Part shown: one piece after another, positions 4,517 through 39,876 of the stretch | How positions within the stretch are numbered: the stretch's first letter is position 1 | Layout: each line of letters opens with the position of its first letter | Assembly: GCA_046329115.1 (NCBI GenBank) | Contig: JAXLVG010000002.1 | Coordinates: forward strand, 3,714-67,713 | Reading direction: 5' to 3' | DNA length: 64,000 nt | Source of the DNA: Flavobacteriales bacterium | GTDB taxonomy: Bacteria > Bacteroidota > Bacteroidia > Flavobacteriales_F > PHOS-HE28 | Program-made: the position numbers and the translations under genes | The notes under the pieces: generated by a model | What the model was told of the DNA's origin: nothing | Databases searched by the model: none | Seen by the model: only the letters and a program-made list of their open reading frames with translations

Positions 4517-4525
4517 GTGTTAACG
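4502..4525 (-). promoter_or_regulatory. GGCAATAACCCG...CGTGTTAACG operator-like motif upstream of the tail-fibre gene
   Basis: ggcaataacccgcacgtgttaacg is nearly identical to 8605-8628. It shares the half-site CAATAACCCG with the 7-2-7 palindromes at 10332-10347 and 13434-13449 and with the inverted arms at 20477-20518. Confidence 0.4.
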
Positions 4526-6418: not shown

Positions 6419-6873
6419 TGGGACACGATGAACGGGATGGTCTGTAGTTCAGTGTTGCTCCCATCGAAGACCCGTAACCGATACGCTCCACTGGCCAGAT
6501 GATCGACGGCCCAAGCATTCGTCGAAGCGTTGATCGGCCATGTGTCGACGTGTTGACCGAGTGCGTTCAGCACGACCGCATGATGGGCCTCGGAAGAGGT
6601 GGTGCTGAGCTGCAGCAGGCCGCGCGTGGGATTGGGATAGAGCTGCCAGTCCGCGATGGATGTGATCGGCACGACGGCCGTGCTGAAGTCGGACGGGGGT
6701 TGATGGAAACCTTGTGTGGCGACCACGTTGGCGGCTGTGCCCGTTGCGACCACGGGCTCACCGATGGTCCATGCGACGCGCAGGCCACCGGACACCCCCT
6801 CGCCACCTGCTGCAGCGGTGACCTGCTGGGCGTGCGACCGGACCGGTAGCAGAAGTGCGATGACAAGGGTCAT
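6415..6873 (-). CDS. Small secreted protein with a T9SS type-A C-terminal sorting domain
   Basis: Signal peptide [17 protein letters not shown]. The C-terminus reads [15 protein letters not shown]...LNALGQHV...ASGAYRLRV...TIPFIVSQ, typical of the Por secretion CTD. The stop overlaps the start of 4520-6418 (ATGA). Confidence 0.7.
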
Positions 6874-6917
6874 GGTCACCCTGCTCACGACCTCCACCAC
6901 ACGAATGCAAGGCATGC

Positions 6918-8560: not shown

Positions 8561-8604
8561 GGTGCGAGGTTCTGGCTTGCGAAGCACGCTTCGGGACAAG
8601 CGCA

Positions 8605-8628
8605 GGACAATAACCCGAGCGTGTTAAC
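8605..8628 (-). promoter_or_regulatory. CAATAACCCG...CGTGTTAACG operator-like motif upstream of the delta-60 pseudogene
   Basis: gacaataacccgagcgtgttaacg matches 4502-4525 at 22 of 24 positions. Confidence 0.4.
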
Positions 8629-10278: not shown

Positions 10279-10283
10279 GGTCT

Positions 10284-10311
10284 GTCGTGTTTTACCCCGG
10301 CAAAACACGAC
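10284..10311 (-). other. Perfect 10 bp stem / 8 nt loop hairpin 6 nt upstream of the ATG of 8728-10278
   Basis: gtcgtgtttt-accccggc-aaaacacgac. The loop motif ccccggc resembles the stems of the terminators at 27086-27120 and 30928-30965. Confidence 0.5.
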
Positions 10312-10326
10312 CAGCAATGAAGGTGC

Positions 10327-10347
10327 GGCAATAACCCGTGCGGGTTA
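10327..10347 (-). promoter_or_regulatory. 7-2-7 inverted repeat TAACCCG-TG-CGGGTTA (NarL/LuxR-type operator candidate)
   Basis: ggcaataacccgtgcgggtta is a perfect heptamer inverted repeat with a 2 bp spacer. It lies between the response-regulator stop and the next gene start. Confidence 0.45.
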
Positions 10348-10350: not shown

Positions 10351-10989
10351 TCACGTCCCGGGATACACCTTCCGGATCGCCTCCATGCGGCCGCTCACCT
10401 GCAGCTTGCTGTAGATGCGGCGCACGTGCACGCGGACCGTCTCGGTGCTCAGATTTAGCTTGTCGGCGATCTCCTTGTACTGCAGACCAGCGGCCAGCCC
10501 ATCGAGCACCTGCTTCTCCCGTTCGCTCAGCTTGTCGTCGTTGATGCGCTGCTGGGTCTCCTTCTGGAAACTGTTCACCACCAACCTGGCGATGGCGCTG
10601 TTCATGGGTGAGCCACCCCGGTGGATGTCGCGGACGGCCTCGAGCAGCTCCTCGGCCGGGGTGCTCTTCAGCAGGTAGCCGGTGGCCCCTGAGCACAAGG
10701 CCTCGAAGATGTACGCCGGGTTCTCGAAGATGGTGAGCATCAGGTACTGCACCTCCGGCTTCAGGCGCTTCGCCTCCCGTACGGTGTCGATGCCGTTCCG
10801 CCCCTCCATGTTGATGTCCATCAGCACCACGTGCAGCTCCAGCTCGGGCAGCTTGTCCAGGTACGCATCACCGCTCTCGAAGACGCGCACCACCTGCATG
10901 TCCCCGGCCCGTTCGATGCGCCGGCGGATGAGCGCACGCAGCTCATCGTCGTCCTCCACGATGGCGATGCGGATGGGGGATGCGGCCAT
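10351..10989 (-). CDS. NarL/LuxR-family response regulator (REC + HTH)
   Basis: MAASPIRIAIVEDDDELRALI...VVLMDINMEG...GATGYLLKS..., then LSEREKQVLDGLAAGLQYKEIADKLNLSTETVRVHVRRIYSKL. The long ORF upstream of MAASP is an opposite-strand GC artefact. Confidence 0.85.
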   Translation of the reverse strand: MAASPIRIAIVEDDDELRALIRRRIERAGDMQVVRVFESGDAYLDKLPELELHVVLMDINMEGRNGIDTVREAKRLKPEVQYLMLTIFENPAYIFEALCSGATGYLLKSTPAEELLEAVRDIHRGGSPMNSAIARLVVNSFQKETQQRINDDKLSEREKQVLDGLAAGLQYKEIADKLNLSTETVRVHVRRIYSKLQVSGRMEAIRKVYPGT

Positions 10990-11018
10990 GCGACCGCAAA
11001 ATACGCGGTCCCCCGGCT

Positions 11019-13370
11019 TCAGGGGAGCTCCATCCGCAGGTGGATGCGCGTGCCCCGGCCATCGCCGCTTTCCACCGTGAGGCGGGCCCCGCAGCGTTCC
11101 GCACGGTGCCGCATGTTCTCCAGGCCGTGCCCCTCCACCTTGTCCGCCCCGATGCCCGAACCGTTGTCCTTCACGTCGAACGCGAGCGTGGTCGGGCTCG
11201 TGTGGAAGCGCACCTCGATCCGCGCGGCCCGGGCATACTTGATCGCGTTGTTCAGCGCTTCGCGGAAGATCAGGTAGATGTCGCGCTTCACCGCCGGGTC
11301 CAGCGTGCGATCCGCGCCTTCGTGCGCGCAGTCGATGCTGTGCTCCACCTTGCCCCACTTGAGCATGCGCTCGGCATGGGCGCGCACGCGCTCGGTGAGC
11401 CCCGCCAGCGAATCGTGGTGCGGATCGATGGACCAGACGATGTCGCCCAGGGAGCGGTTGGCCTCCCCGGCGATGCGCTCGATGTCGTCGGCCAGGGCGG
11501 GCACGGCCCGCACGTCGCTCTGCGCGAGCTCCCTGGCCTCGGTGCTCAGCAGCACGAGCTTGGTGAGGTCGCTGCCGAGCTGGTCGTGCACATCGCGCGC
11601 GATGCGCGTGCGTACTTCGGAGGCCTCGCGCGCCCGCTCGCTCTCCAACAGCCGGGCCTGCGCCTCCAGGATGGCCGCGTTCTTCTCCGCGAGCGCACGA
11701 CGGCTGCGGCGTGCGTTGCGCAGGAGCAGGAAGAGGAGCGCCCCCACCACGGCCACCACGCCGAAGCCCGCGGCCAGAAACAGGTTACGCCGGCGGTGGG
11801 CCGCGAGCTCGCTTTCCTGCGCGGCGTTCGTGGCGGACAGCTCCTCCAGTTCGGCATCCTTGCGTTCCGAGGCGAAGCGGACGTTCAAGGCGTTCAGGTC
11901 CTTGATGCGCTCCAGGTCCAGCAGGCTGTCCTTGGCGGTGAGGTAGAGCCGAAGGGAGGCCAGGGCCTCCGTCGTGTTGCCGTTCGCCTGATGCACTTCG
12001 TGCTGCGCGAACAGGGCATCGCGCCAGGTCTCCAGCCAGCCTTCGCGGGTAGCGAGGGCGATGAGGGTGTCCAGGTCGCCAAGGGCGGCACGGCGATCGG
12101 CCGCATCGCCATGCGCCAGGATCCGCGCGTGCTCCACCCGCAGCCACGCCCGATCGATGCGCAGCCCGGGATGTTGGGCGAGCGCGAGGCCCTCCCCGAT
12201 GTAGGCCCGGGCCTGACCGAAGCGCCCCAGCCGACGGCACACCTTGCCCAGGTCCAGCAGGATGGCCGCCTCCTCAACGCGCTCGCCCTGCACCATGGTG
12301 ACCGCCTGCGGGCCGCGCATCAGCTCCAGCGCCCGCTGCAGGGACCGCAATGCGGTATCCAGCCTGCCCAGCTCCAGGAGGCAGGCACCATAGGTGCCCA
12401 GCAGCGTCGCCTTGACGTGCGCCTGTTCGACCCCCTCCAGAAGGTCGAGCGCCTCCTTCAAATGCGCCAGCGCCGAGGCGCGATCCCCGAAGTCGATGTG
12501 GAGCTCCGCGAGCTCCCGGCCGGTCTCCACGATCATGGCGTTCGACCGCAGCATCTTGGACAGCGCGTGTGCGCGAAGGGCGTCCCGCAGGGCCAGGTCC
12601 TGATCGGCCAGTTCGTTCGCGGCGAAGGCGCGCATGCGGCAGGCCGCGCGCTCGTGCAGGAGCGCGCCGGTGCGCTGGATGAGCGCTTCCGCAACGGCGC
12701 AATGGTGCAGGGTGCGCATGAACGCCTCGGTGGTGATGGCCTCCATGGCACTGTCCAGCTGCAGCTGGATGAGCAGGAAGGTGTCGCGCGAGGCGGTGAT
12801 GACCTCCGCGATGCGATCGCTGGCGCGTTGCACCGTTTCCGGGTCGGCCGATCCACCATACTTGGTAACGCCCAGTGCCCAGTAGAGGCCCGTGGCCGAA
12901 CGGTGGCGTTCGAACGCTTCGAGCGCCTTGGCGTAGTGCACAAGCGCCACGCTGTCCTCGCCTGCATCCTCGCAACGGTCGATGTACAGGCACCAATGCG
13001 CGTAACCCAGGTCCTCCTGCGGTCCATGCTGGGTGAGCAGCCGCAGGGCCCGTTCCAGTTCCGCCGCCTCACCGCCATAATATCCGCTCGTCTGCCTGGC
13101 CGCCACCCGGCGCGTGATCGCACTGCCCAGCAACGAAGGGTCGTTGAGGCGCTCGGCCAGCGCGATCGCCTCCTGCGCCGCCTCCATCGCGCTCACCGGG
13201 TCCGTATCGCGCTGGTACCATGCCAGGCGTTCCAGCTTGCGCGCCCGGTCGGCATCGCTCAAACGCGCATTCGCCAGTTCGCGCTGGAGCCTGCCGATGT
13301 TGACGGCCTGCGCCAACGCCCCGTGCCAGGGCGCAAGCAGCAGCAGGAGGACAAGGGCACGGCCGGTCAT
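11019..13370 (-). CDS. Sensor histidine kinase with periplasmic TPR repeats, HisKA_3 and HATPase_c (HK-A)
   Basis: Signal/TM1 MTGRALVLLLLLAPWHGALAQ, TPR-like region, TM2 LFLAAGFGVVAVVGALLFLLL, then RIARDVHDQLGSDLTKL and ...ALNNAIKYA...VKDNGSGIG...GHGLENMRHRAE. It lies directly upstream of the RR. Confidence 0.85.
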   Translation of the reverse strand: MTGRALVLLLLLAPWHGALAQAVNIGRLQRELANARLSDADRARKLERLAWYQRDTDPVSAMEAAQEAIALAERLNDPSLLGSAITRRVAARQTSGYYGGEAAELERALRLLTQHGPQEDLGYAHWCLYIDRCEDAGEDSVALVHYAKALEAFERHRSATGLYWALGVTKYGGSADPETVQRASDRIAEVITASRDTFLLIQLQLDSAMEAITTEAFMRTLHHCAVAEALIQRTGALLHERAACRMRAFAANELADQDLALRDALRAHALSKMLRSNAMIVETGRELAELHIDFGDRASALAHLKEALDLLEGVEQAHVKATLLGTYGACLLELGRLDTALRSLQRALELMRGPQAVTMVQGERVEEAAILLDLGKVCRRLGRFGQARAYIGEGLALAQHPGLRIDRAWLRVEHARILAHGDAADRRAALGDLDTLIALATREGWLETWRDALFAQHEVHQANGNTTEALASLRLYLTAKDSLLDLERIKDLNALNVRFASERKDAELEELSATNAAQESELAAHRRRNLFLAAGFGVVAVVGALLFLLLRNARRSRRALAEKNAAILEAQARLLESERAREASEVRTRIARDVHDQLGSDLTKLVLLSTEARELAQSDVRAVPALADDIERIAGEANRSLGDIVWSIDPHHDSLAGLTERVRAHAERMLKWGKVEHSIDCAHEGADRTLDPAVKRDIYLIFREALNNAIKYARAARIEVRFHTSPTTLAFDVKDNGSGIGADKVEGHGLENMRHRAERCGARLTVESGDGRGTRIHLRMELP

Positions 13371-13401
13371 GCTGCGAAGGTGCGTGGTGCGCGTGGCACC
13401 G

Positions 13402-13453
13402 GCAATCACCCATGCGGGTGAAGCGACCGGATCAACCCGAACGGGTTATGGCG
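13402..13453. promoter_or_regulatory. Divergent-promoter operator pair (GGCAATCACCC...CAACCCG-AA-CGGGTTATGGC)
   Basis: aacccgaacgggtt is a perfect 7-2-7-type palindrome. The arm sequences match those at 20477-20518. The site lies between HK-A and the divergent novel-CTD gene. Confidence 0.4.
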
Positions 13454-13503
13454 CACCACCGTCCCGACAGGAAGCTTTGCCGTTGATCAATGCTCCACAG
13501 CCG

Positions 13504-16311
13504 ATGAACCGGACATGCACCCTTCTGCTCTGCATCGCGACCGCGCAGCTCGCATCCGCACAGCAATACCCGCTCGACAGTCTTTGCTGGGGACTTACCG
13601 GCAGCGGCATCGCGATCCTGGAGGACACCGTGCACGACCGGATCTTCGTGGGGGGTGACTTCGTACAGGTGCGCGACCCGCGGGAGCTTGAGAACTGCGT
13701 GGAGTTCAACGCGACCAGCGGGCTCGTGGTGCGGCAGTCGCCGAACCCGGACGGGGCGGTGCGGTGCGCGCTGCCCGATGGCGCCGGGGGCTGGTACATC
13801 GGCGGTGACTTCAGCGTGGTCGGCGGCCTGCCACGCGCCCGCCTCGCCCACGTCCTGCCGGACGGCTCTGTGGCGGCATGGGCCCCGGTGGTGGTGGGTT
13901 CGGTGCGCACCATGCTCATCAAAGGCGACACCCTGTACTTCGGTGGCGGCCTCACCACCGTGAACGGTGCGGCACGGACCAACCTGGCGGCCGTGCGCCG
14001 CTCCACCGGCACCAATGTGGCATGGACCCAGGCCACGGCGAACGACACGGTGCGGTGCATGGCCCTGAACAGCGGCCGGCTCTACGTGGGTGGCGACTTC
14101 ACGCAGGTGAACGGATCGGCGCGATCGCGCATCGCTTCCTTCACCGTAAGCAACCACGCGCTCACCACCTGGGCACCCACCGTGGACGACAAGGTGCGCT
14201 GTGCCATCGCAACCGCATCTGCCGTGTACATCTGCGGCGACCTCACCACGGTGAACGGCATCGCGCGCGGTGGCGCCGCATCGTTGAACCCGACGGGCAA
14301 CTTCGTGCTGAACTGGAACCCGAACACGAACGGAACGGTGAACTGCATGGCCCTCTCCGGGTCGTCCATCCTGCTCGGGGGCACGTTCACGCAGGTGAAC
14401 GGTTCCACGCGCAACCGCATCGCCATTGTTTCGGCCGGCACCATAGCGTCGCTGTCAACGTGGACCAAGGACCTCGACGGTGCTGTGGAAGGCATCGCCG
14501 TGCTGAACGATGTGGTCTATGCGACCGGCGCGTTCGAGCGTGTGGATGCCGTATTCCGCCACCGCTTGGTGGCGTTGGGGCTGCCGGGCACCGCCGCGCC
14601 GGCCATCGGCGATTGGCGCGCGAGCGTTCACGGCGAGGCCGCATGGTGCATCGCGGCGCAGGGGTCGGGCATTTTCGTCGGCGGTGCGTTCTCCCGTTGC
14701 GGACTGTCGCGCCGGAGCATCGCCGCTTATGATCAAACCACCGGACTTCCCTTGCCCTGGGACCCGGGGGTGAACGGCGAGGTGCGCTCGCTGGCCCAGG
14801 GCGCTGACGGTACTGTGTACGCCGCCGGGTCGTTCACTTCAGTGGGGGGCGTTGCGCGTGCGAACATGGTGGCCCTCGACCCCCTCACCGGTGCGGTGCT
14901 TTCGTGGAGCGGCGGCGCCACCCTGGGCGATGTGAACGCCATCGTTGTGAGCGGCGATACCCTGGTGGCCTGTGGCACCTTCGCCTTCCTGGGCGGAACG
15001 CCCCGCCTGGGCCTCGGAGCGTTGTCGCGCACCACCGCGGCGGTGCTTCCATGGAACCTGCCGGTGGCGCCCGGCGACGAGCCGAAGAAGCTGTTGCTCC
15101 GCCGGGATACGCTGTACGTGTGCGGCCACATCACCGCCGTTGGCAGTACGGGGCGCAACGCAGTGGCGGCCATCCGCCTCTCCACCGGTACCGTGCTCCC
15201 GTTCGCCGCCGATTGTGCAGCAGGAAGTTCGGCGCAGCAGATGGCCTTGGACGGTGACCGGCTCTGGGTGGGCCGCGTTGATGGCATCTGGGGAGGTGAG
15301 AACATACTCTCGTGGGACCTTCTTGTGCTGAACGCGTACACCGGCGCCATTCTGCCTCGCCAACCCATGGAAGGGAACGCCCTGGCCGTGCGTGGCAACA
15401 AGGTCTTCAGCGGCCAGGCCTACCTCGCCGCCCGGGATGCCGCAACAGGCTGGCTCACCGGGAGCAGCCTCGGGCAGAGCTGCGGGGGTGCGTTGCTGTT
15501 CTCGGAAAGCGGCGACCTGCTTTGTGCAGGCGTGGCGGATAATATCCCCTCCAACAAGGGTTTCTTCCGTGTGCGCATCGATCCGAGCATCTCCATCCGC
15601 GTCATGCTCGATGGACCCTTCAGCACCGGCACCATGACCCCCACCCTGAACGATCTCGGCCTGTTGCCGACCACCGAGCCTTACACGTCCCTGGGCTACA
15701 TGCATACGGGCGGTGGTGGCGGCGAGGTCGCTGGTTCCGCGCTCAACTTCCCGTCGAGCGGCATCATCGACTGGATCGTCGTCGAATACCGGGATGCGGT
15801 GGACCCGTCCATCGTGGTCGCTTCCGCGAGCCGATTGCTCTACTCCAACGGCCGCGTGGAACGGGCGGGGGGTATCAGCATCCCGACCTTCGCCGCCGAT
15901 CCCAACGGCCAGTACCACGTGGCCGTGCGCCACCGCAACCACCTGGGCGTGATGACCGCACAACCGGTGGACTTCTCCACCAGCCCCTTCATCGACTTCA
16001 CGGCGCAGAGCACGGCGGTATTCGGCACTGATACCCGGAAGAACAACAGCGGTACCCTGTGCCTGTGGGCCGGTGATGTGAACTTCGACGGAACGATCAA
16101 GTACACCGGAAGCAACAACGACCGCGACCCCATCCTGGTGAGCATCGGGGGCACCACGCCGAACAGTGTCTTGAGCGGCATGTACAGCGCGGCCGATGTG
16201 AACATGGATGGTCTGGTGAAGTACACCGGCAATAAGAACGATCGCGATCAGGTGCTGCTGAGCATCGGCGGCACCACGCCGAACAGCACGCGCACCGACC
16301 AGCTGCCGTGA
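13504..16311 (+). CDS. Secreted delta-60/beta-propeller repeat protein with the novel RHRNHL/twin dockerin-like C-terminal module (ends ...TDQLP)
   Basis: Signal peptide MNRTCTLLLCIATAQLASAQ. It has many GGDFTQVNG...R.RLA roughly 60 aa repeats. The C-terminal roughly 247 aa (about 15568-16311) is the conserved module. The ORF portion 13114-13503 overlaps HK-A on the other strand and is rejected. Confidence 0.8.
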   Translation: MNRTCTLLLCIATAQLASAQQYPLDSLCWGLTGSGIAILEDTVHDRIFVGGDFVQVRDPRELENCVEFNATSGLVVRQSPNPDGAVRCALPDGAGGWYIGGDFSVVGGLPRARLAHVLPDGSVAAWAPVVVGSVRTMLIKGDTLYFGGGLTTVNGAARTNLAAVRRSTGTNVAWTQATANDTVRCMALNSGRLYVGGDFTQVNGSARSRIASFTVSNHALTTWAPTVDDKVRCAIATASAVYICGDLTTVNGIARGGAASLNPTGNFVLNWNPNTNGTVNCMALSGSSILLGGTFTQVNGSTRNRIAIVSAGTIASLSTWTKDLDGAVEGIAVLNDVVYATGAFERVDAVFRHRLVALGLPGTAAPAIGDWRASVHGEAAWCIAAQGSGIFVGGAFSRCGLSRRSIAAYDQTTGLPLPWDPGVNGEVRSLAQGADGTVYAAGSFTSVGGVARANMVALDPLTGAVLSWSGGATLGDVNAIVVSGDTLVACGTFAFLGGTPRLGLGALSRTTAAVLPWNLPVAPGDEPKKLLLRRDTLYVCGHITAVGSTGRNAVAAIRLSTGTVLPFAADCAAGSSAQQMALDGDRLWVGRVDGIWGGENILSWDLLVLNAYTGAILPRQPMEGNALAVRGNKVFSGQAYLAARDAATGWLTGSSLGQSCGGALLFSESGDLLCAGVADNIPSNKGFFRVRIDPSISIRVMLDGPFSTGTMTPTLNDLGLLPTTEPYTSLGYMHTGGGGGEVAGSALNFPSSGIIDWIVVEYRDAVDPSIVVASASRLLYSNGRVERAGGISIPTFAADPNGQYHVAVRHRNHLGVMTAQPVDFSTSPFIDFTAQSTAVFGTDTRKNNSGTLCLWAGDVNFDGTIKYTGSNNDRDPILVSIGGTTPNSVLSGMYSAADVNMDGLVKYTGNKNDRDQVLLSIGGTTPNSTRTDQLP

Positions 16312-16390
16312 GCGTGGTGCGTCGGTGGTCAACACCCATGTCCGCATGCGGCCGTGCGCATGGCAAGAAGTCCTCGCGGTGATCGCGGGC

Positions 16391-18457
16391 TCAGGCCCGT
16401 TCCACGAAGAACATCTCCATGGCCCCCTTGCCCTTCGCCTGCACCTTGCCGCGGGGGATGAAGGTGAAGCGTTGTCCGTTGTCGGTTGCCGGTTGTCCGT
16501 TGCTGCTGTCCGCCGCGCGCAGGATCGTGTGACCATCAACTGACAACCGACCACCGACAACCAACCGGTACGTCGCTTCACTGATGTTCACCTTGCCCAC
16601 CTCACCGGACGATTCCATGCGGCTCGCCGTGTTCACCGTATCGCCCCAGATATCGTACTGGAACTTCTTCACCCCTACGATGCCCGCGACCACGGGACCT
16701 GTGTGCACGCCGATGCGGATCTCGAAGTAGGGCTTGCCGGCCGCGATCTTCCGCTGCTTGCCCTCCTCGATGAAGTCCCGCATCTCCAAGGCGGCCTTGA
16801 TGGTGTCCACCGCGTGCGTGGCGTTCGCCACCGGCAGGCCACCGGCGGCCATGTAGGCATCGCCGATGGTCTTGATCTTCTCGATCCCGTACTTCTCCGT
16901 GATCCTGTCGAAGGCGCTGAAGCACTCGTTCAGGTCGCGCACCAGCTCGCGCGGCGTCAAGTTCTCGCTGAGCGAGGTGAAGCCCTTGAAGTCGGTGAAG
17001 AGCACGGTGACGTGATCGAGCTGTATGGCCTGCGCCTCGCCCTTCTCCTTCAGTTCATCCGCGACCTCCTCCGGCAGGATGTTCAACAACAGGGCCTCGC
17101 TGCGCGCCTTTTCCCTGCTGATGCGGTTGCGCTGGGTGAAGAAAACCCCGGCCAGAAGGAGCATGAGCCCGAAGCCACCTATGGATGCGTTGCGTTGAAG
17201 CTGCTTCCGACGCAGTGCTTCGGCAGCGATGGCGTCCTTCTTCTCCTGTTCGGCGGCGAGCAGGGCTTCCTTCTTCTCGTATTCATATTGGAAGCGTTGT
17301 TTGAGCAGGTTCCTCCGGTTGCCTTCGTTGACGAAACTGTCACGGGCGGCGATATATGATTCGTGCATGAACAACGCCTCCGCGCTGCGGCCAGCCTGCT
17401 TCAAAGCCCGGTACCGCACCTCACGCGCATCACGCAGGACCTCCAGCCCCCCGAACGCGTTGGCATGCCGCAATGCTCGTTCCGATGAACGTAGTGCCTC
17501 GCTCACCATCCCCTGCTGTAGCCATGAACGCGTGAGTTCCACGGTGGCCGAGGCCGCCAACATCTCGTCCTGATGCTCCAGCGCCAGCTTCAGGCTGCTG
17601 TCCAATAAGGAAACGGCCGCTTCATGTCTGCCTGCCATCATCTCCAACTTGCCCAAGCTGCCCAACGCCGTGGTGATGCTGGTGACATCGTTCATGCGTC
17701 TGGCGATCGCGAGGCTCTTCTCATAGCCATCCCGGGCCTCTTCAAGCCGGCCCTGCCGCTCCTTGGTCATGCCGATGCAGATCCACGCCTCCAGTGCGCA
17801 TTGTTCGTCGCCGATGGCTTCCGCAACGGCAATGCGCCGTTGGAAGTAGTCCAAGGCGATCGCATCCTCACCTTGTTCGTAGAAGGCCACGCCGATATTC
17901 CCAAGTGCCCTGGCAATGACGCTGCTATCGGACATGGCCTCACCGAGCTTCAATGCTCTTGTCAAGTAGTCGATGGAAAGCGCATCGTCCCCTTTGTAGC
18001 TGGCTACGTTCCCCAAGTTGTTCAGGATACCCGCCATCCGCCCGGTGTCCCCGAGCTGTTGCCAAATGGCGTAGCTGCGCCCGTAACAGGCTTCAGCGCT
18101 GTCCCAATGGCCCAGTTCGCGATGGCTGATGCCTTTGAGGTTCCAGGCGCTGGCTTCCTCCCTACGAAGTCCGATGTTCCGGAGCTGTGGGATGAGCTGC
18201 TCCACAGCTTGTGCCAGGCTGTCCGGTGCAGCGCCATACCGCCGTTCGAACAAGTAACTGAGCAGCGCTTTGGTCCGCACGCTATCCGGACGCGTCACAT
18301 CCTGATGCACGGCCAAGAGGCTATCAAGGTCCACCGGGTGCTGTGCCTTGCCACTGGACCCCACCACGGAGGACAGGACAAGCGCAGCTGCAAGCGAGCC
18401 GATGCGGGTACGGAGAACGGTCACGAACATGAGGTGCTCTTCCAGATCATCACGCAA
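16391..18457 (-). CDS. Membrane-anchored class III adenylate cyclase with a periplasmic TPR sensor (paralog of 645-2750)
   Basis: Same architecture as 645-2750. The cyclase domain DNA 16391 to about 17045 is more than 90% identical to 645 to about 1300. The start overlaps the HK-B stop by 8 nt (or lies 20 nt after it if MFVTVL is the start). Confidence 0.85.
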   Translation of the reverse strand: [688 protein letters not shown]

Positions 18458-20471
18458 CGAGCTCCACCTCCAGCCGCACCAATGTACCGCCCTCCGGTTC
18501 GCTGGCGATCACCAGCCTTCCGCCCAGGCGCTCGGCGCGCTCCTTCAAGTTGCGCAACCCGCGGCCCTTGCGCAGGGCGCTGGTGGTGTTGAAACCCTTG
18601 CCATCGTCCTTCACCTCCAGCCGGACGCTGCGCTCCCGTGCCACGAAGGTGACGTGGATGCAATGCGCCTCGGCGTACTTCACCGCGTTGTTCACCGCTT
18701 CGCGCAGGATCAGGTAGAGGTCGCGCTTGGTGGCGGGGTCCACCGGCCGGTCGCGGCCTTCCACAAGGCAATCGATGGTGTACGTGGCACCGCTGGTGCA
18801 CAGCATGTGTTCGCAGAACTGGCGCGACCGGTCCATGAGGCCGGTGAGCGTGTCGTGCGCGGGCTCCACGGCCCACACGATATCGCTGAGCGAGCGGCCC
18901 GCCTCCGAGGCGATGCGGTCGATGTCCGCGACCAGTTGCGGAACGGCGTCGGGGTCGTCCTGCAGGCTTGCGCTCACCTCGCTGCCCAGCATGCTCAGCT
19001 TGGTGAGGTCGCTGCCCAGCTGGTCGTGCACATCGCGCGCGATGCGCGTGCGCACCTGCTCGGCCGCGCGCTGCTGCTCGCTCCGCACCAGCCGGTCCTG
19101 CGCCGCCAGGATGGCGGCATTGGCCTTGCGCACCACGCGCGAACGGCTCCACAGCGCCAGCGCCACGGCGATGGAGAGGACGCAGGCCACGATGATGACG
19201 TTGCGCCGTGTGCGTTCGTCGGCCAGCTGGTGCGCATGCTCCATCGCCGTGGTGCGCGCCGCCGCCGCATGCTCCAGGCTGTCGCGCAATTCCTGCTCGC
19301 GGAAGCGCGCCCACAGCACGGCCTCGCGCCCGTTCATGCGCTCCACACTGTCCTTCAGCGCGGACCAGCGCTCGTGCGCATCCAGTGCCTCCGCCGCGCG
19401 CCCCTGCGCCTTCAGCGCGGTACGCAGGCCGGCCAGCGCATAGAGCATCGAACCTTCATCGCCCAGTTCGCGCGCCACGCCCACATTGCCGAGACCGTCG
19501 GCCAGTGCGAGCCCTCGCCGGTACCAGTGCTCCGCTTCCCGGTGGTCGCCCGATAGCGCGAGGCCATCGCCGATCAGGTTGATGCAACCGCAATGCGCGG
19601 TGAGGTCGCCCATGCGCTCGGCGAGCGCGGCGCATGACCGTGCCGTGCGCAGCCCGTCCGCACCCCTCCCTTGTTCGTAGTACAGCCGGGCGAGCGGCGC
19701 GAGCGCGGGCAGGCTGTCCCACGCATTGCCGGACCGGCCGGCCACCTTCAGGCCGCGCAGCAGCAATGCCTCGGCATCGGCGCTGCGGCCCTGCGTGCGC
19801 CGGATGCGCGCGCGCGCGCTGAGCACCAGCACTGAATCACCGGGGGTGCCGCCGCCCGCGCTGTCCAGTTGCGCCCATGCCGCTTCGTGCGCACGGCCAT
19901 CGGTGAGCAGGCCGGCCAGGTGGATGTGCGCCTGGGCCTCCAGCGACCGGTCGCCCAGCTGCCGCGCGATGGCCAGCGACCGGCGGAAGGAGCGCTCCGC
20001 CTTGTCATGCGCATCGGCCAGGCCGTACACCAGGCCGATGGCATCCAGCCCTTCGGCCGCACCGCGCACATCGCCCACGGCCTCGAACGCGGCGATGGCC
20101 TCTTGGAAGGAGACCAGCGCGGCCGTGAGGTCGCGGGCGAACTTGTGGTGGTAGCCCGTGAGGTAGTGGTACGCGCCCCGGGCGCGCTGGGCGCGTGCAC
20201 GGACGTGCGCATCGCTGTGCCGCAGCAGCTCGCTGCTCAACGCATCCAGCCGCCGCAGGTAAGGGGCCGCCTTGGGCGAGGTGAACCAGGACTCGGCGGC
20301 CCAGGTGAGCAGGGTGAGCTGCGCGGTGTCCTTCCGCGTTGCATCGAGCAGCGGCAGGATGGAGTCCAGCCGCTCCGGCTCAGCCTGGGCCCGCGCGATC
20401 GCAGCGCACAGCACGGCGAGCAACAGAAAGGAAGCGCGGCGGAACACGCGGCAAAGGTGCCGGCCAAGCAA
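18450..20471 (-). CDS. Sensor histidine kinase with periplasmic TPR repeats, HisKA_3 and HATPase_c (HK-B)
   Basis: RIARDVHDQLGSDLTKL is identical to HK-A, then ILREAVNNAVKYA...VKDDGKGF...GRGLRNLKERAERLGG. It probably uses a TTG/alternative start at 20471. No cognate RR is adjacent. It is co-oriented and overlapping with the cyclase 16391-18457. Confidence 0.8.
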   Translation of the reverse strand: MLGRHLCRVFRRASFLLLAVLCAAIARAQAEPERLDSILPLLDATRKDTAQLTLLTWAAESWFTSPKAAPYLRRLDALSSELLRHSDAHVRARAQRARGAYHYLTGYHHKFARDLTAALVSFQEAIAAFEAVGDVRGAAEGLDAIGLVYGLADAHDKAERSFRRSLAIARQLGDRSLEAQAHIHLAGLLTDGRAHEAAWAQLDSAGGGTPGDSVLVLSARARIRRTQGRSADAEALLLRGLKVAGRSGNAWDSLPALAPLARLYYEQGRGADGLRTARSCAALAERMGDLTAHCGCINLIGDGLALSGDHREAEHWYRRGLALADGLGNVGVARELGDEGSMLYALAGLRTALKAQGRAAEALDAHERWSALKDSVERMNGREAVLWARFREQELRDSLEHAAAARTTAMEHAHQLADERTRRNVIIVACVLSIAVALALWSRSRVVRKANAAILAAQDRLVRSEQQRAAEQVRTRIARDVHDQLGSDLTKLSMLGSEVSASLQDDPDAVPQLVADIDRIASEAGRSLSDIVWAVEPAHDTLTGLMDRSRQFCEHMLCTSGATYTIDCLVEGRDRPVDPATKRDLYLILREAVNNAVKYAEAHCIHVTFVARERSVRLEVKDDGKGFNTTSALRKGRGLRNLKERAERLGGRLVIASEPEGGTLVRLEVELVA

Positions 20472-20476
20472 CGAGC

Positions 20477-20518
20477 GGCCAATAACCCGACGGGGTTAAT
20501 ACGCACGGGTTATTGGCC
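20477..20518. promoter_or_regulatory. 13 bp inverted-repeat operator GGCCAATAACCCG-N16-CGGGTTATTGGCC in a 75 bp divergent promoter region
   Basis: The arms are perfectly inverted. The site lies between HK-B (minus) and 20547-23417 (plus). Confidence 0.45.
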
Positions 20519-20546
20519 GCGGGCCCGCGATCGCGAACGTTTGTGC

Positions 20547-23417
20547 ATGCCGTTCGCCATGCGCTCCTCCACCACCGGCCTCGCCGCGCTCCTCCTCCTG
20601 CTCACCCACAGCCATGCCTGTGCACAGCACTTCGCAGTGGACACCACGTGGTGGTACACCGATGGTGAGGTGAAGGCCATCACGGAGGACACGGCGAACG
20701 CGCGCGTGGTGGTGGGCGGACACTTCACGCGCATGCTGCCGCCCCATCCCTCGGCGCACGGCGCCGTGGTGGGCACGCTGAACGATGTGCTGCGCACCGG
20801 TGATGCACGGCCGAACGACCGTGTGCGGTGCGCCGTGCCGGACGGCGGCGGCGGCTGGTACATCGGCGGCGCCTTCACCGCCGTGGACGGTGCCTTCCGC
20901 TACCGGCTTGCGCACCTGCTGGCGGACGGCAGCCTGGGCACGTGGGCACCGGTGGTGAACGGCGAGGTGAACGCCCTGGCGATGAAAGGCGACACCATGT
21001 ACGTGGGCGGCTCCTTCTCGCAGGTGAACGGGCAGACCCGCGTGAACCTCGCCGCCGTGCGGCTGAGCACCGGTGCGAACGTAGCCTGGGGCGGCACCGC
21101 GGATGCGCAGGTGCGCGTGCTCGCCGTCGATGGCGACGACCTCTTCGTGGGCGGCGACTTCACCCATGCCTCCAGCCAGCCGCGCGGGCGTCTGGCCGTG
21201 TACAACACCACCACGCATGCCCTCTCCACCGTGTGGGACCCGGACCTCAACGGGCCCGTGCATGCCCTGGCCTTCGCCACGTATGGCGTGGTGGTGGGCG
21301 GCGACTTCACCCAGGTGGGCACCACCGCGCGCAACCACCTGGCGAGCCTCGAGCGCGCGGACGGAGCGGTGAAGACCTTCAACCCGGGGCCGAACAACAC
21401 GGTGCGTTGCATCCAGGTCACCGGTTCCAACATCTACATCGGGGGCGACTTCACGCAGGTGGGAGCCAACCCGCGCACCTACCTCGCGCTGGTGCACAGC
21501 GGTGGAGGCACCAGCAGCGACTGGATCAATAACATGAACGCACCGGTCTATTCCCTGCACCTGGTAACGGCCGGCGCCCTCTACGTCGGCGGCCAGTTCT
21601 CGCGCGCGGGAGGGGCCTATCGCCACCGCGCGGCCGCCTTCCGCCTGCTGGGCAACGGTACCGCGCCCTGGCTGCTGCCCTGGGCGCCCGCCGGCAACGG
21701 CACGGTGCGCTGCATCGAGCAACAGGGCAACGACCTGTATATCGGCGGCGGCTTCGACACCCTCGGCGTCACCCGGCCGCACATCGCGCTGCTGGACGCG
21801 GCCATCGGCGCTCCCCAGGCCTGGAACGAGGGCACCAGCACCTGGGTGAACACCGTGGCAATCGGGACCACCCGCACCTACGTCGGCGGCGCCTTCGATT
21901 CGCTGTGCACCAGCGGGGCCCTGCGCCAGAAGATCTTCGCCTTCAACAGCGCCACCGGTGCGCTCTCCACCTGGAGCACGGAGCTGGACGACCAGGTGAC
22001 CAGCCTGGCGGTGCATGGCGGCAAGCTTTACGCCTGCGGGCTGTTCACACAGGCGGCCGGGCAGCCGCGGCTGCACTTCGCCGTGTTCGACAACCCGTCC
22101 GCCAACCTGACCTCCCTTAACCCCGATGCCAATGGCGCCCTCTCCCTGCTGCTCCACGGCGATACCTTGTTCCTGGGTGGCTCCCTCGACTTCACGGGCG
22201 ACCCGCCCCGGCCGCTGCTCAACGCGCTCATCCTGCCCGCCGGTACACCCCATCCGTTCGACCCCCAGGTGAACAACACGCACCTGTCGAACCACGTTTT
22301 GCACATGGCCGCGCGCGATGGGCGCATCTACTTCACCGGCCAGTTCGGCTGGGTGGGCGGCATTGACCGGGACAATGCCGCCGCCGTGCGCACAATGGAC
22401 GGGCAGCTGCTGCCCTGGTGGCCCGATGCCCCGGCGCAGAGGGCGCCCATCGCCTTCACCGGCCGCACCATCAGCATGGTGGTGAGCGGCCAGGCCGGCA
22501 CGCAGTGGGAGCTGCGCGCCTTCGATCCGGACGATGGTGCGCGCGTCTCCGACCACCTTGTGCTGGATGGCCGGGCGGACGAACTGCGCACCCTTGCGAA
22601 CGGGCACCTGCTCGTGGGCGGCTCCTTCACCCAGATCGGTGGGCGCCCCGTGCGGCACTTCGCGCGCGTGCACGTTACACCCACCCTGCGCGTGCGGGCC
22701 TTCCTGCAAGGTCCGTTCGATATGGGCACGTTGCTGATGGACAACAACCTCTCCCAGATACAGGCGATCCCCCTGCAGGAGCCCTACACCGCCCTGGGCT
22801 ACGTGCACACGGGCGGTGGCGGCGGCGAGGTGGCCACCACCGCCATCTACGGAGGCATCACCGCCAGCGGCATCGTGGATTGGGTGGTGGTGGAGCTGCG
22901 CGACCCCGTGGATCCCTCCATCGTCGTGGCCTCCCGTTCGGCCCTGCTCCGCCGCGATGGGCTGGTGGTGGACCACACCCAGGGCCCGCTCCTGCCCTTC
23001 GGGCCCGATCCGGACGGCACCTACTACATCGCCATCCGCCACCGCAACCACCTGGGTGCCATGACCGCCGCACCAATGGACATCGGAGGCAACGCACTGG
23101 CGGACTTCGCAGCCAGTGGTGCCGACACCTATGGCACCGACGCCGTACTGAGCGACCCATACTTCAGCCTGCTCCGGGCCGGCGATACCAACTTCGATGG
23201 CGAACTGAAGTACGTGGGCGCCGACAACGACCGCGACCCCATCCTGCTGCGCGTGGGCGGCACCACACCCAATGGCACGGTGATCGGCTACTTCAACGAG
23301 GATGTCACCCTCAACGGCATCTCGCAGTACGTGGGCTCCTTCAACGATCGCGACCTGATCCTGCAGAACGTGGGCGGCCTGGTGCCCACCGCCACGCGCA
23401 CGCAGCAGTTGCCATGA
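20547..23417 (+). CDS. Secreted delta-60/beta-propeller repeat protein with the novel RHRNHL/twin dockerin-like C-terminal module (ends ...TQQLP)
   Basis: Signal peptide MPFAMRSSTTGLAALLLLLTHSHACAQ. GGDFT.VG...R..LA repeats follow. The C-terminal roughly 245 aa (about 22679-23417) is the conserved module. Confidence 0.8.
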   Translation: MPFAMRSSTTGLAALLLLLTHSHACAQHFAVDTTWWYTDGEVKAITEDTANARVVVGGHFTRMLPPHPSAHGAVVGTLNDVLRTGDARPNDRVRCAVPDGGGGWYIGGAFTAVDGAFRYRLAHLLADGSLGTWAPVVNGEVNALAMKGDTMYVGGSFSQVNGQTRVNLAAVRLSTGANVAWGGTADAQVRVLAVDGDDLFVGGDFTHASSQPRGRLAVYNTTTHALSTVWDPDLNGPVHALAFATYGVVVGGDFTQVGTTARNHLASLERADGAVKTFNPGPNNTVRCIQVTGSNIYIGGDFTQVGANPRTYLALVHSGGGTSSDWINNMNAPVYSLHLVTAGALYVGGQFSRAGGAYRHRAAAFRLLGNGTAPWLLPWAPAGNGTVRCIEQQGNDLYIGGGFDTLGVTRPHIALLDAAIGAPQAWNEGTSTWVNTVAIGTTRTYVGGAFDSLCTSGALRQKIFAFNSATGALSTWSTELDDQVTSLAVHGGKLYACGLFTQAAGQPRLHFAVFDNPSANLTSLNPDANGALSLLLHGDTLFLGGSLDFTGDPPRPLLNALILPAGTPHPFDPQVNNTHLSNHVLHMAARDGRIYFTGQFGWVGGIDRDNAAAVRTMDGQLLPWWPDAPAQRAPIAFTGRTISMVVSGQAGTQWELRAFDPDDGARVSDHLVLDGRADELRTLANGHLLVGGSFTQIGGRPVRHFARVHVTPTLRVRAFLQGPFDMGTLLMDNNLSQIQAIPLQEPYTALGYVHTGGGGGEVATTAIYGGITASGIVDWVVVELRDPVDPSIVVASRSALLRRDGLVVDHTQGPLLPFGPDPDGTYYIAIRHRNHLGAMTAAPMDIGGNALADFAASGADTYGTDAVLSDPYFSLLRAGDTNFDGELKYVGADNDRDPILLRVGGTTPNGTVIGYFNEDVTLNGISQYVGSFNDRDLILQNVGGLVPTATRTQQLP

Positions 23418-23455
23418 GGACGCGTGACATGCCGATCACGCGGTACCGGAACGGT

Positions 23456-23490
23456 GCGTTGACAATGACGAGCGTGCGGACCGGGAAGGC
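23456..23490. promoter_or_regulatory. Recurrent downstream motif (copy 2) GCGTTGACAATGACGAGCGTGCGGACCGGGAAGGC
   Basis: 33 of 36 nt match 574-608. Confidence 0.3.
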
Positions 23491-23507
23491 GTAGCGGAAC
23501 CCTCCGC

Positions 23508-23700
23508 TCACTCCAGGACGGTGTCGCCCCGGATGTGATACCTGCACTTCTTCATCCCCAACATACCCGCCATCACCGAACCATTGTGCTCCCTACATTC
23601 GTGGGGCAGCGGCCGCGCTGCGCACTCACCTGCTTCAAACCCGGTCACCATTCCCATGCCCATGCGCGAACCGCTACGCTCGTTCCTCTGCGCCCTGCTG
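23508..23700 (-). pseudogene. Decayed remnant of a class III adenylate cyclase catalytic domain
   Basis: The minus-frame peptide ...ARPLPHECREHNGSVMAGMLGMKKCRYHIRGDTVLE* aligns with the cyclase segment [36 protein letters not shown]. It sits at the position expected for a third cassette cyclase, convergent with 20547-23417. Confidence 0.4.
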
Positions 23701-25320
23701 TGTTCCATCGCACCCTTGCTGAACGCACAGATCGAACAAGTGGCCTCCTTCACTGCGGGCTCCTTCGGGTACGTGCCGCGCGACCTTGTGGTGATGGGCA
23801 GCCACATCTACTTCCGCAACTGGACGGCCGAGAGCGGCATGGAGCTGTGGCGCACCGATGGCACCACCGCCGGCACCGTGCTGGTGAAGGACATCCGGCC
23901 CGGCGCGGGCAACGGGATGGAGGCCAACGAGGGCATGGCCGTGGTGGGCAACACGCTGTACTTCCCCGCCGATGACGGCACCACGGGCTGGGAACTGTGG
24001 AAGTCCGATGGCACGGAGGCCGGCACCATGCTGGTGATGGACATCCGACCCGGGCCTTTGGGTTCCAGCCCGGCCTACCTCACCGCCTTCGGTGACCGGC
24101 TGCTCTTCCGCGCCAACAATGCGACCAGTGAGGCGCTCTACAGCACCGACGGCACCCCCGGCGGCACGTACGCCCCGGTGGACTTCGTCACCCAGCAGAC
24201 CATCACCGTCTCGGGCCCCATCCGCCCCATGGGCGCCGTGGCCGTGTTCCCTGGTACCGCCCTCAGCGAGGCCGGCGGGGAGATCTGGACCACCGACGGC
24301 ACCCCCAGTGGCTGCTTCCTGCTCAGCGACATCTGCCCCGGCATCGGCTGGAGCAACGCCGCCGGCCGCAGCTGGATGGCCGACGACTTCCTCTACTTCC
24401 TGGCCGATGACTGCACCCATGGCATCGAACTGTGGCGCACCAACGGCACCGCACCCACCACCACCCTGGTGGCCGATGTGTACACCGGCACCAACTCCGC
24501 AAGCCCCTACCACCTCGTTCCCCTGGATGGCCAGGTGCTCTTCGCCGCACTGGATGACACCGGCAACGGCATCTACCGCAGCGACGGCACCGCGATTGGC
24601 ACCTACAAGCTCGCCACCATGGGCGTGCCACAGCTCTGGAACGGCGACCGCCAACCCGCGCGGCGCGTGGGCGACATCGCGCTCTTCGTGGGCTTGGATC
24701 CGGACCATGGCTATGAGCTTTGGCGAAGCGATGGCACCGAGGCCGGCACCTACATGGTGAAGGACCTCTGGCCCGGCACCAACGGTTCCATCGCCGGCGC
24801 GGGCTTCAACTTCTGGGTCTTCGGCGGGCAGCTCTACTTCGCGCCCGAAGTGCCCGTGTACAGCACCGAACTGTGGCGCAGCGACGGCACCGAGGCCGGC
24901 ACCGTGATGGTGCAGGACCGCGCGCCCGGCATCAACTACTTCGCGCCGGACCACCTGGTGCAGTTCGGCGACCACATCTACATGACCGGTTCGCTCACAG
25001 CCTCCGACCGCGGCATCTACCGCCTGGAGCTGGCCGGCACCGGCATGGCCGAGAGCGCCACCACCGCCACGCTTCGCGTGTACCCCAACCCCACCAACGG
25101 CAACGGCTGCACGCTGCAACTGCCCAACGGCATCGCCACACAGGGCCCGCTGCGTGTGGAACTGCTGGACGCCACCGGCCGCGTGGTGGTACAACGCACC
25201 CTGCAAGGCGCGCCCACCCTGCAGCTGGAACTGGAGCGGGCCTTGAACCCCGGCGTGTATGCCGTGCGCGTGCACCATGCGCAGGGCGGCCTGCTCACCG
25301 CACAACTGGTGGTGCAGTAA
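23656..25320 (+). CDS. ELWxxDGT-repeat protein with a T9SS type-A C-terminal sorting domain
   Basis: Signal peptide, then repeated ELWRTDGTTAGTVLVKDIRPG / ELWKSDGTEAGT / IELWRTNGTA / YELWRSDGTEAGT units. The C-terminus reads LRVYPNPTNGNGCTLQL...GVYAVRV...LVVQ. Confidence 0.8.
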   Translation: MPMREPLRSFLCALLCSIAPLLNAQIEQVASFTAGSFGYVPRDLVVMGSHIYFRNWTAESGMELWRTDGTTAGTVLVKDIRPGAGNGMEANEGMAVVGNTLYFPADDGTTGWELWKSDGTEAGTMLVMDIRPGPLGSSPAYLTAFGDRLLFRANNATSEALYSTDGTPGGTYAPVDFVTQQTITVSGPIRPMGAVAVFPGTALSEAGGEIWTTDGTPSGCFLLSDICPGIGWSNAAGRSWMADDFLYFLADDCTHGIELWRTNGTAPTTTLVADVYTGTNSASPYHLVPLDGQVLFAALDDTGNGIYRSDGTAIGTYKLATMGVPQLWNGDRQPARRVGDIALFVGLDPDHGYELWRSDGTEAGTYMVKDLWPGTNGSIAGAGFNFWVFGGQLYFAPEVPVYSTELWRSDGTEAGTVMVQDRAPGINYFAPDHLVQFGDHIYMTGSLTASDRGIYRLELAGTGMAESATTATLRVYPNPTNGNGCTLQLPNGIATQGPLRVELLDATGRVVVQRTLQGAPTLQLELERALNPGVYAVRVHHAQGGLLTAQLVVQ

Positions 25321-36282: not shown

Positions 36283-36339
36283 GCCGCAAGATATCCGCAC
36301 AACGTCCATACTTCCCGCACACAGGTGCTCACACAACGC

Positions 36340-36650: not shown

Positions 36651-36714
36651 AGTGGAATCACCCATTGACGCGCATTCGCCCGGCGTGGTGCTTTGTAGGA
36701 CCATCCTCCGCACC

Positions 36715-39781: not shown

Positions 39782-39844
39782 GCCGGCAAAGTTCGGTCGT
39801 CCATCCCGCGGATGAACCGCCCATCACATTGGAAACGTTCCCTA

Positions 39845-39876
39845 TTGCATTTCGTTTCCGTCGTTCCATACGTTTG
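39845..39876 (+). promoter_or_regulatory. Bacteroidota-type sigma-A promoter candidate (-33 TTG / -7 TAcgTTTG) for the tetR-efflux operon
   Basis: ttg at 39845-39847 and tacgtttg at 39869-39876 with a 21 nt spacer, about 37 nt upstream of the TetR ATG. Confidence 0.35.

Follow-up and report, generated by a model that had tools for sequence, protein, structure and literature searches.

A probable two-component regulon for cell-surface proteins, with tetratricopeptide-repeat sensor kinases and adenylate cyclases, in a Flavobacteriales bacterium

The 64,000-nt window analysed here (G+C content ~65%) is part of contig JAXLVG010000002.1 from a Flavobacteriales bacterium, all close relatives of which are Flavobacteriales metagenome-assembled genomes (MAGs); several of its genes neighbouring the region discussed below carry type A sorting domains of type IX secretion systems (T9SS). 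An earlier, sequence-only reading of this DNA saw in it a tandemly duplicated signalling cassette, repeated three times and composed of a histidine kinase, a secreted propeller protein with a novel C-terminal domain (CTD) and an adenylate cyclase, both enzymes having tetratricopeptide repeats (TPR) in the periplasm. We conclude with moderate confidence, from sequence comparisons, that the region is a conserved two-component regulon for cell-surface proteins and not a repeated signalling cassette. Two kinases with extracytoplasmic TPR sensors, HKA and HKB, would both most likely phosphorylate a single response regulator (RR), which would bind as a dimer to a palindrome of two inverted heptamers found at seven promoters. 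These promoters would drive the HKA-RR and HKB-cycA gene pairs, the CTDA and CTDB genes, two DUF5122 T9SS propeller genes and the tf1-cyc0 operon, so that the regulon would supply secreted propellers, tail-fibre-like proteins and propellers with a docking domain made of an X-module and a dockerin-like part. As a TPR cyclase gene is the 3'-terminal one in two of these operons, cAMP-synthesising capacity would be co-expressed with the regulon.

All the open reading frames (ORFs) named in the sequence-only reading are present at or near the positions it gave. The RR gene lies within the coordinates that it covered yet is absent from its text; the product is of the NarL/LuxR type, with REC and GerE domains recognized by Pfam and NCBIfam. 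Pfam finds TPR, HisKA_3 and HATPase_c domains in HKA and HKB (ORF 18450-20471), TPR and Guanylate_cyc domains in cyc0 and cycA (ORF 16391-18457), and DUF5122/Rax2 propeller repeats in CTDA and CTDB, whose last ~240 aa have no match in Pfam or NCBIfam. The start of cyc0 overlaps the stop of tf1, so cyc0 is the last gene of the tf1 operon. The genes concerned are as follows.

645-2750, minus strand: cyc0, class III adenylate cyclase with periplasmic TPR, last gene of the tf1 operon.
2747-4516, minus strand: tf1, secreted tail-fibre-like protein carrying a Peptidase_S74 chaperone domain; ATG 4471 is the likely start.
4520-6418, minus strand: tf2, tail-fibre-like protein with collagen repeats and Peptidase_S74.
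6415-6921, minus strand: small secreted protein with a T9SS-type C-terminal motif, in the collinear block kept in relatives.
6918-8599, minus strand: disrupted paralogue of the DUF5122 T9SS propeller gene, in two ORFs.
8728-10317, minus strand: DUF5122 beta-propeller protein whose C-terminus is T9SS type A-like; ATG 10278 is the likely start.
10351-10989, minus strand: RR, NarL/LuxR-family response regulator (REC + GerE).
11019-13370, minus strand: HKA, with signal peptide, TPR, transmembrane (TM) helix, HisKA_3 and HATPase_c; 29 nt upstream of RR.
13504-16311, plus strand: CTDA, signal peptide followed by DUF5122 propeller repeats and, at the C-terminus, an XDoc-like module of 241 aa ending in QLP.
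16391-18430, minus strand: cycA, class III adenylate cyclase with periplasmic TPR; TM and catalytic module near-identical to that of cyc0 (core 16559-17143).
18450-20447, minus strand: HKB, orphan TPR HisKA_3 kinase; probable start GTG 20447.
20547-23417, plus strand: CTDB, paralogue of CTDA (39% identity) with the same kind of architecture.

The palindrome was first seen in both kinase/CTD intergenic regions and in their orthologues in two relatives, L001 and L002 (L numbers denote related loci). Its extended consensus, CAATAACCCG-NN-CGGGTTATTG (TAACCCG-NN-CGGGTTA), consists of two inverted heptamers 2 bp apart. Allowing one mismatch, AACCCNNNNGGGTT is found seven times in the window against 1.37 expected, a count that no shuffle reached. 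At up to two mismatches the 16-mer TAACCCN4GGGTTA likewise occurs exactly seven times in the 64 kb, always in intergenic DNA and always between 4.5 and 20.5 kb.

4507-4522: palindrome TAACCCGCACGTGTTA, facing tf1(-cyc0), 27 nt upstream of TTTG.
8611-8626: palindrome TAACCCGAGCGTGTTA, facing ORF 7505-8599 of the disrupted propeller gene, 27 nt upstream of TTCG.
10332-10347: perfect palindrome TAACCCGTGCGGGTTA, between the RR stop and the propeller gene 8728-10317 that it faces, 27 nt upstream of TTTG.
13406-13421: palindrome TCACCCATGCGGGTGA, facing HKA(-RR), 27 nt to TTCG and then 4 nt to ATG.
13433-13448: palindrome CAACCCGAACGGGTTA, facing CTDA, 27 nt to TTTG.
20483-20498: perfect palindrome TAACCCGACGGGGTTA, facing HKB(-cycA), 27 nt to TTTG.
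20497-20512: palindrome TAATACGCACGGGTTA, facing CTDB, 27 nt to TTTG and then 3 nt to ATG.

Each of these sites has a TTG on its gene-facing side, followed by TTTG or TTCG exactly 27 nt after the 16-mer. Of the 22 sites in the window and in six related loci, 21 keep this spacing, against a background in which TTTG/TTCG has a frequency of 0.5% per position. The fetched loci (2.06 Mb) contain 15 sites at up to one mismatch, of which 14 belong to the orthologous clusters of L001, L002, L082, L085 and L135. They occupy equivalent positions there: in the gap between RR and the propeller gene, upstream of tf1 and of HKA, in the divergent region between HKB and a CTD gene and, in L001, upstream of CTDB.

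A sigma-70 promoter scan of the window returned nothing, which we attribute to the different promoters of Bacteroidota, and terminator-like sites were at chance level; promoters were therefore read by hand. We take TTG-24 nt-TTTG to be a putative Bacteroidota -33/-7 promoter. If this layout applies, the palindrome adjoins the -33 TTG and is centred near -44, a position from which a bound regulator would be expected to activate. The start codons of HKA, HKB, CTDB and tf1 (13370, 20447, 20547 and 4471, respectively) come 3-4 nt after the putative -7 box, which suggests that these mRNAs are leaderless or near-leaderless; the same short distance upstream of tf1 is seen in L082, L135 and L159. Because the -7 box would otherwise fall inside the TTG-started ORF of HKB, the start of that gene was moved to GTG 20447, its most likely position. 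The palindrome was also considered as an element of an alternative-sigma promoter, a reading that was rejected because both of its arms are conserved even where a gene is found on one side only (4507, 8611 and 10332).

Several observations point to RR as the protein that binds the palindrome. No other DNA-binding protein is encoded in the block HKB-HKA-RR-propeller-small protein-tf2-tf1-cyc0 that relatives conserve, and no product of that block is better conserved (81-89% identity in relatives, against 44-81% for the kinases, cyc0 and the propeller, and 86% for tf1). Regulators of the NarL family recognize inverted heptamers in the 7-2-7 arrangement, one of which, at -44.5, is enough for activation (PMC9314961). 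The motif also changes together with the regulator: in L120, whose RR is 81% identical, the palindromes are shifted (e.g. TACCCATTAGTGGGTA) at an unchanged promoter position, and loci with a paralogous RR of 58% identity have a different motif there, TACTACT...AGCATTG. A strict 7-2-7 palindrome was found beside the paralogous regulator in none of eight other loci, where the only conserved motif was asymmetric. The L120 variant, TACCCAT-TA-GTGGGTA, resembles the Escherichia coli heptamer, TACYYMT. On these grounds the palindrome is probably the operator of RR.

The asymmetric motif, (G)TACTACT-N6-7-AG(C/T)ATTG, precedes tail-fibre-like genes, downstream of a TPR kinase and its regulator that are paralogous to those described here (58% identity for the regulator), in L002 (15290-15440), L085 (10660-10730), L009 (7860-8010) and L120 (21655-21800). 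A TTTG box follows at about the distance seen with the palindrome in L002, L009 and L120, the L085 excerpt being too short. The two motifs suggest a family of related regulons with diverged operators.

The palindrome could alternatively be bound by a cAMP-responsive factor of the Crp/Fnr type encoded elsewhere, the TPR cyclases rather than the kinases driving the regulon. A palindrome of 16-22 bp near -44, the typical class II position, would suit such a factor, as would its alternative parsing as 5-6-5 (TAACC-N6-GGTTA) and the embedding of cyclases in two of the operons. Neither the window ORFs scanned nor the conserved block of the relatives include a cNMP-binding or Crp/Fnr gene, L001 and L002 retain the sites with no cyclase in the locus, and the motif co-varies with the divergence of RR. 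We regard a Crp/Fnr-type factor as unlikely.

The two kinases have the domains expected of partners of RR. The HisKA_3 and HATPase_c scores (28.9 and 51.2 bits in HKA, 32.9 and 49.4 bits in HKB) are all above the Pfam cut-offs, as are those of RR (Response_reg 80.4 bits, GerE 70.3 bits), and since HKB-HKA-RR form one operon in relatives, the two kinases would share RR. The named NCBIfam equivalogs of such systems (NarX, NarQ, UhpB and LiaS for the kinases, NarL and NarP for the regulator) all score under their cut-offs, e.g. 122 against 250 bits for NarL and 70-80 against 408 bits for UhpB.

Topology, assessed with a hydropathy scan and the positive-inside rule, bears out the earlier proposal of periplasmic TPR and cytoplasmic catalytic domains in all four sensors, HKA, HKB, cyc0 and cycA. 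Each has an N-terminal signal-like segment ending in A-x-A or similar and one internal TM helix, after which comes a cluster of Arg and Lys (RNARRSRR, QRNRISREKAR or RSRVVRK). These features place the TPR arrays outside the cytoplasm. The periplasmic TPR domains cover approximately residues 24-531 of HKA, 22-415 of HKB (numbered from GTG 20447), 21-439 of cyc0 and 31-413 of cycA (numbered from ATG 18430). The NCBIfam model of FimS (NF053520), a TPR kinase of Porphyromonas gingivalis, gives partial matches on the TPR regions of the two kinases and both cyclases, all of them at 18.7-61.5 bits (HKA 43.9, HKB 18.7) against an equivalog cut-off of 600. Just past the left end of the window, as seen in the near-identical strain L159, a TPR sensor of the LytS type (His_kinase, PF06580; L159 11421-13358, minus strand) stands with a LytTR regulator (10715-11446, minus strand); TPR arrays thus take the role of external sensor for three different output modules in this organism.

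What is conserved around these genes was examined in two samples. A profile of the CTD (A1) was scanned against one genome per species and gave at least 584 genomic matches, all in Flavobacteriales/Bacteroidota MAGs, from which 78 CTD-centred loci (1.19 Mb) were taken; a reciprocal scan of metagenomes with cycA provided 80 cyclase-centred loci (0.87 Mb). Most CTD genes adjoin other CTD genes. HisKA_3 kinases occur in 12 of the 78 loci, being divergent and adjacent in the orthologous L001 and L002, with L069 ambiguous. A cyclase of any kind occurs in four, and is convergent and adjacent only in L062. Conversely, six of the 80 cyclase-centred loci have a CTD gene within 10 kb, with a convergent adjacent pair only in L109 and L134, which are near-identical, and tandem arrays of cyclases are common.

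The nearest relatives show what has moved. In L001, the closest species (~77-79% identity), HKA on the minus strand faces away from CTDA and CTDB, both on the plus strand and 80 nt apart, and the locus has neither cycA nor HKB. L002, L082 and L135 carry the entire block from HKB to cyc0 on a single strand, with one CTD propeller gene divergent from HKB and no CTD gene convergent with the cyc0 orthologue. L120 and L085 have variants in which CTD genes and one to three cyclases lie within the same block. Order and content differ in each of the seven loci compared (these six and L159), and the HKB-cycA junction was found in this genome only. Linkage of the cyclase to the kinase/CTD order is thus not conserved in L001, L002, L082 and L135. 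The kinases, RR, the surface-protein genes and cyc0 are a conserved neighbourhood, and the order and orientation described in the sequence-only reading are specific to this genome. The convergence of cyclases with CTD genes and the interleaving of kinases with CTD genes probably arose by lineage-specific rearrangement among paralogues. Adjoining genes take part in the conservation: tf1 (2747-4516, minus strand) and tf2 (4520-6418, minus strand) adjoin the two-component system in all relatives examined.

The paralogues themselves do not bear the marks of a cassette copied as a unit. HKA and HKB are 38% identical overall (46% in the kinase core) and CTDA and CTDB 39%, whereas cyc0 and cycA share ~25% of residues in the TPR part and ~95% (88% at the nucleotide level) in the TM and catalytic part. 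Divergence so unequal speaks against tandem duplication of a three-gene unit. The DNA repeats are short conserved segments only. The sequence-only reading completed the pattern with two further features.

1-492, plus strand: 3' end of the CTD-0 gene with an XDoc-like CTD, the whole protein being seen in strain L159.
23452-23589, minus strand: decayed cyclase remnant, composed of a catalytic-domain fragment (23518-23589) and a segment lying 3' of the cyc0 stop (23452-23490).

Strain L159, in which cyc0 is 100% and tf1 98% identical, shows the DNA to the left of the window. The CTD-0 protein there has 500 aa, a signal peptide, three AEYFWDxDPG repeats and the XDoc-like CTD, and is not a propeller; the genes upstream encode a 368-aa protein, LigB and ArsC, with no divergent HisKA_3 kinase. 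Judged from L159, the supposed partial cassette at the window start has neither the kinase nor the propeller. That cyclases are always convergent with the CTD gene and kinases always divergent from it, as the sequence-only reading had it, is accurate for three cyclase copies and two kinases in the window. The cyclase remnant is real, although it lies at 23452-23589 and not at 23508-23700. It is recognizable from two DNA matches to the 3' region of cyc0 (23518-23589, 78% over 72 nt, and 23452-23490, 90% over 39 nt), which are collinear with ~270 nt deleted between them, and from a 24-aa tblastn match.

The window has two more CTD genes, neither of them with a cyclase. The first, at 36652-38922 (plus strand), has DsbA after it and diverges from the genes of a Reg_prop/Y_Y_Y HisKA_3 kinase and the regulator belonging to it; the second lies at 56798-59431 (minus strand). 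Their XDoc-like modules are 43-46% identical to the matching region of CTDA and CTDB, their N-terminal parts have no Pfam match and neither has an upstream 7-2-7 palindrome. A degenerate tandem array of 34-42-nt units (36350-36607; consensus CTCCGTGCCTCCGTGTGAACCCGCATTCGCATTT) fills the divergent intergenic region between the kinase (33187-36381, minus strand) and the CTD gene 36652-38922.

Could shared ancestry be all that there is, with three expanded paralogue families brought side by side by neutral duplication, deletion and recombination? The size of the CTD family and its frequent tandem arrays, the arrays of TPR cyclases, the gene order that differs between every pair of relatives examined, the decayed cyclase copy and the frameshifted propeller paralogue all fit this view. 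It does not account for an operator at fixed spacing before HKA, HKB, CTDA and CTDB that is conserved across genomes, which argues for co-regulation, and as a full explanation we find shared ancestry doubtful. The kinase/CTD/cyclase order itself is local reshuffling and not a conserved signalling cassette.

A few points weigh against the regulon as we propose it. The central link, between the palindrome and RR, is drawn from their co-location and co-variation across a handful of genomes. In this genome no RR adjoins HKB, whose partner is inferred from the relatives. As the two additional CTD genes of the window have no palindrome, the regulon would be short of the whole CTD family. Finally, all three cyclase copies in the window are convergent to CTD genes; this is unlikely by pure chance and is explained only as a product of duplication history.

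Duplication has also affected the propeller genes. An 80-nt tandem duplication (7592-7659 and 7672-7739, 99% identity) splits the propeller paralogue into ORFs 7505-8599 and 6918-7616 and is a recent frameshifting event. This additional paralogue (6918-8599) is missing from L002, L082 and L135.

By sequence the cyclases belong to class III. Guanylate_cyc (PF00211) scores 191.7 bits in cyc0 and 186.7 bits in cycA against a cut-off of 21.9. The catalytic domain aligns with both halves (C1 and C2) of mammalian AC9, with the LFTDF and KTIGDAY motifs present. Residue roles are well established for the C1 and C2 domains of mammalian adenylate cyclases; in the AC9 alignment both metal-binding Asp residues, the Lys/Asp pair for adenine and the Asn/Arg pair for the transition state are kept. 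This complete set makes adenylate cyclase the likely activity. The 8-nt overlap of HKB with cycA noted earlier holds for a TTG start of cycA, whereas the more plausible ATG 18430 leaves a 19-nt gap. The operon drawn from it stands in either case, since the two genes are co-directional with a gap of at most 19 nt and are probably co-transcribed.

The two cyclase genes form a mosaic. A block of 815 nt is 88% identical (645-1460 and 16391-17200), and its 195-codon core (801-1385 and 16559-17143) has 22 synonymous and seven non-synonymous codon differences. With ~95% identity in the catalytic part and ~25% in the TPR, this indicates recombination or gene conversion between old paralogues, not recent duplication of a whole gene; the catalytic modules would have been homogenised by recombination while the TPR sensors diverged. 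L082/L135 have, next to a tf1 of 86% identity, a positional orthologue of cyc0 whose catalytic part is 81-82% and whose TPR part is an estimated ~29% identical, so the sensor domains turn over very fast. TPR cyclases of this architecture are abundant in Bacteroidota metagenomes (at least 480 relatives were confirmed among the 600 stretches listed), and a search for TPR-linked class III cyclases in Bacteroidetes found, in the library searched, no paper characterising them.

For the 241-aa module that ends CTDA and CTDB, the protein database contains at least 712 relatives; nearly all of these are unnamed, their N-terminal domains vary widely and they lack a Pfam domain. The module is always terminal, occurs fused to many different secreted domains and is found only within a clade of Flavobacteriales. 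The T9SS type A domain (TIGR04183 / PF18962) is not detected at the C-terminus of CTDA or CTDB even at E<=10, and is matched by neighbours such as the product of 23584-25320. No Pfam or NCBIfam family was found for the four window copies even at E<=10, nor across 70 members. Dockerin_1 of Pfam was found in none of the four window copies and in one of the 70 members at E 0.11, with no significant match.

The AlphaFold2 (AF2) model of the module shows a beta-sandwich X-module followed by a duplicated loop-helix repeat of the calcium-binding, dockerin-like type. Foldseek E-values against XDoc-type folds are weak (0.009-0.11). As modelled, the module thus at least looks like an XDoc docking unit; by sequence it is not placed in the dockerin family. 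The sequence-only reading had singled out an invariant C-terminus, Q-[LVI]-P. In the form Q-[LVMIF]-P it is near-invariant (117 of the 120 listed members); in the model it lies inside the fold, leaving no free tail, with residues 235-237 as a strand of the second dockerin-like repeat that runs parallel to the equivalent strand of repeat 1.

This bears on the boldest proposal for the locus, namely that the C-terminal tail or the CTD of the secreted propellers serves the neighbouring TPR kinases and cyclases as a ligand in the periplasm and couples surface-protein traffic to cAMP and two-component signalling. The proposal draws on the three cyclases convergent with, and two kinases divergent from, CTD genes in the window, on the independent convergent CTD-cyclase pairs in L062 and L109/L134, and on the extracytoplasmic TPR regions. 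There is also a precedent in the phylum, as PorA, a T9SS cargo, uses its CTD to bind the sensor kinase PorY in the periplasm (PMC12152298), and FimS is suspected of binding a polypeptide through its periplasmic TPRs (PMC11053733). Yet the cyclase-CTD and HKB-cycA arrangements are missing from the closest relatives, 77 of the 78 CTD loci lack a convergent cyclase next to the CTD gene, and in 74 of the 80 cyclase loci no CTD gene is found within 10 kb. Hundreds of paralogues with unrelated N-terminal domains share the invariant tail, whereas the four TPR sensors are ~25% identical and evolve fast even between positional orthologues, so that the tail cannot explain the diversification of the sensors. 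It is, moreover, modelled as a structured strand of a dockerin-like repeat. The tail as a TPR ligand agrees neither with synteny, the test that the sequence-only reading had itself put forward, nor with the modelled fold, and we consider it very improbable. The adjacency of kinase and CTD genes, which is kept in orthologous loci, is explained better by a shared operator and co-regulation than by ligand sensing.

A more far-reaching variant, argued by analogy with PorA-PorY, would make the XDoc-like module a new surface-anchoring or export-sorting domain of Bacteroidota whose periplasmic passage is monitored by the TPR kinases and cyclases. Were it true, module and sensors would form a feedback circuit between a new display system and cAMP and two-component signalling; we mention it as a speculation with very little chance of being right.

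Outside the regulon, the ORFs 39733-43209 and 43049-46684 (both on the minus strand; 1158 and 1211 aa) have no Pfam match and are overlapped by ORFs of equal length on the opposite strand, e.g. 43085-46669 (plus strand). An Rfam scan of the window found no RNA family.

For an uncultured lineage of Flavobacteriales from wastewater and freshwater, the proposed regulon offers something concrete and testable: a 7-2-7 operator, a fixed promoter geometry, two TPR kinases acting on one regulator and a set of surface-protein targets. The XDoc-like CTD, present in hundreds of secreted proteins of the clade, points to surface display in the cohesin-dockerin style in a phylum of Gram-negatives known chiefly for anchoring by the T9SS. 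Neither point overturns current understanding, and what the locus combines is familiar in kind: a two-component regulon with TPR sensors, class III cyclases and a module resembling dockerins.

Among characterised systems, PorA-PorXY is the closest known analogue of a CTD acting as a kinase ligand (PMC12152298). PorA ends in a canonical T9SS CTD, and PorY does not belong to the TPR kinases, whereas here the CTD is not of the T9SS type A and the linkage is not conserved. The XDoc of Clostridium thermocellum CipA/ScaA differs from the module described here, which has longer repeats, an invariant NDRD motif and an R-x-x-Q-[LVMI]-P end and belongs to a Gram-negative host of the Flavobacteriales. 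The cyclases share with membrane-anchored class III enzymes the Guanylate_cyc domain, the full set of catalytic residues and a single TM helix leading to an outside sensor, which in this case is a TPR array. FimS/FimR of P. gingivalis, in which a kinase with periplasmic TPR controls surface-appendage genes, is similar in its TPR cluster between two hydrophobic segments and in having surface structures as targets (PMC11053733). It differs from the present system in that the latter has a HisKA_3 core, a NarL/GerE regulator and two kinases per regulator, and that its targets are propeller and tail-fibre-like proteins instead of fimbriae. NarX/NarQ-NarL/NarP, in turn, have a P-box/HAMP periplasmic domain in place of the TPR sensor, and the promoters here are of the Bacteroidota -33/-7 type; common to both are the HisKA_3 kinase and the REC + GerE regulator, and the putative operator described here has the geometry of theirs, two inverted heptamers spaced by 2 bp.

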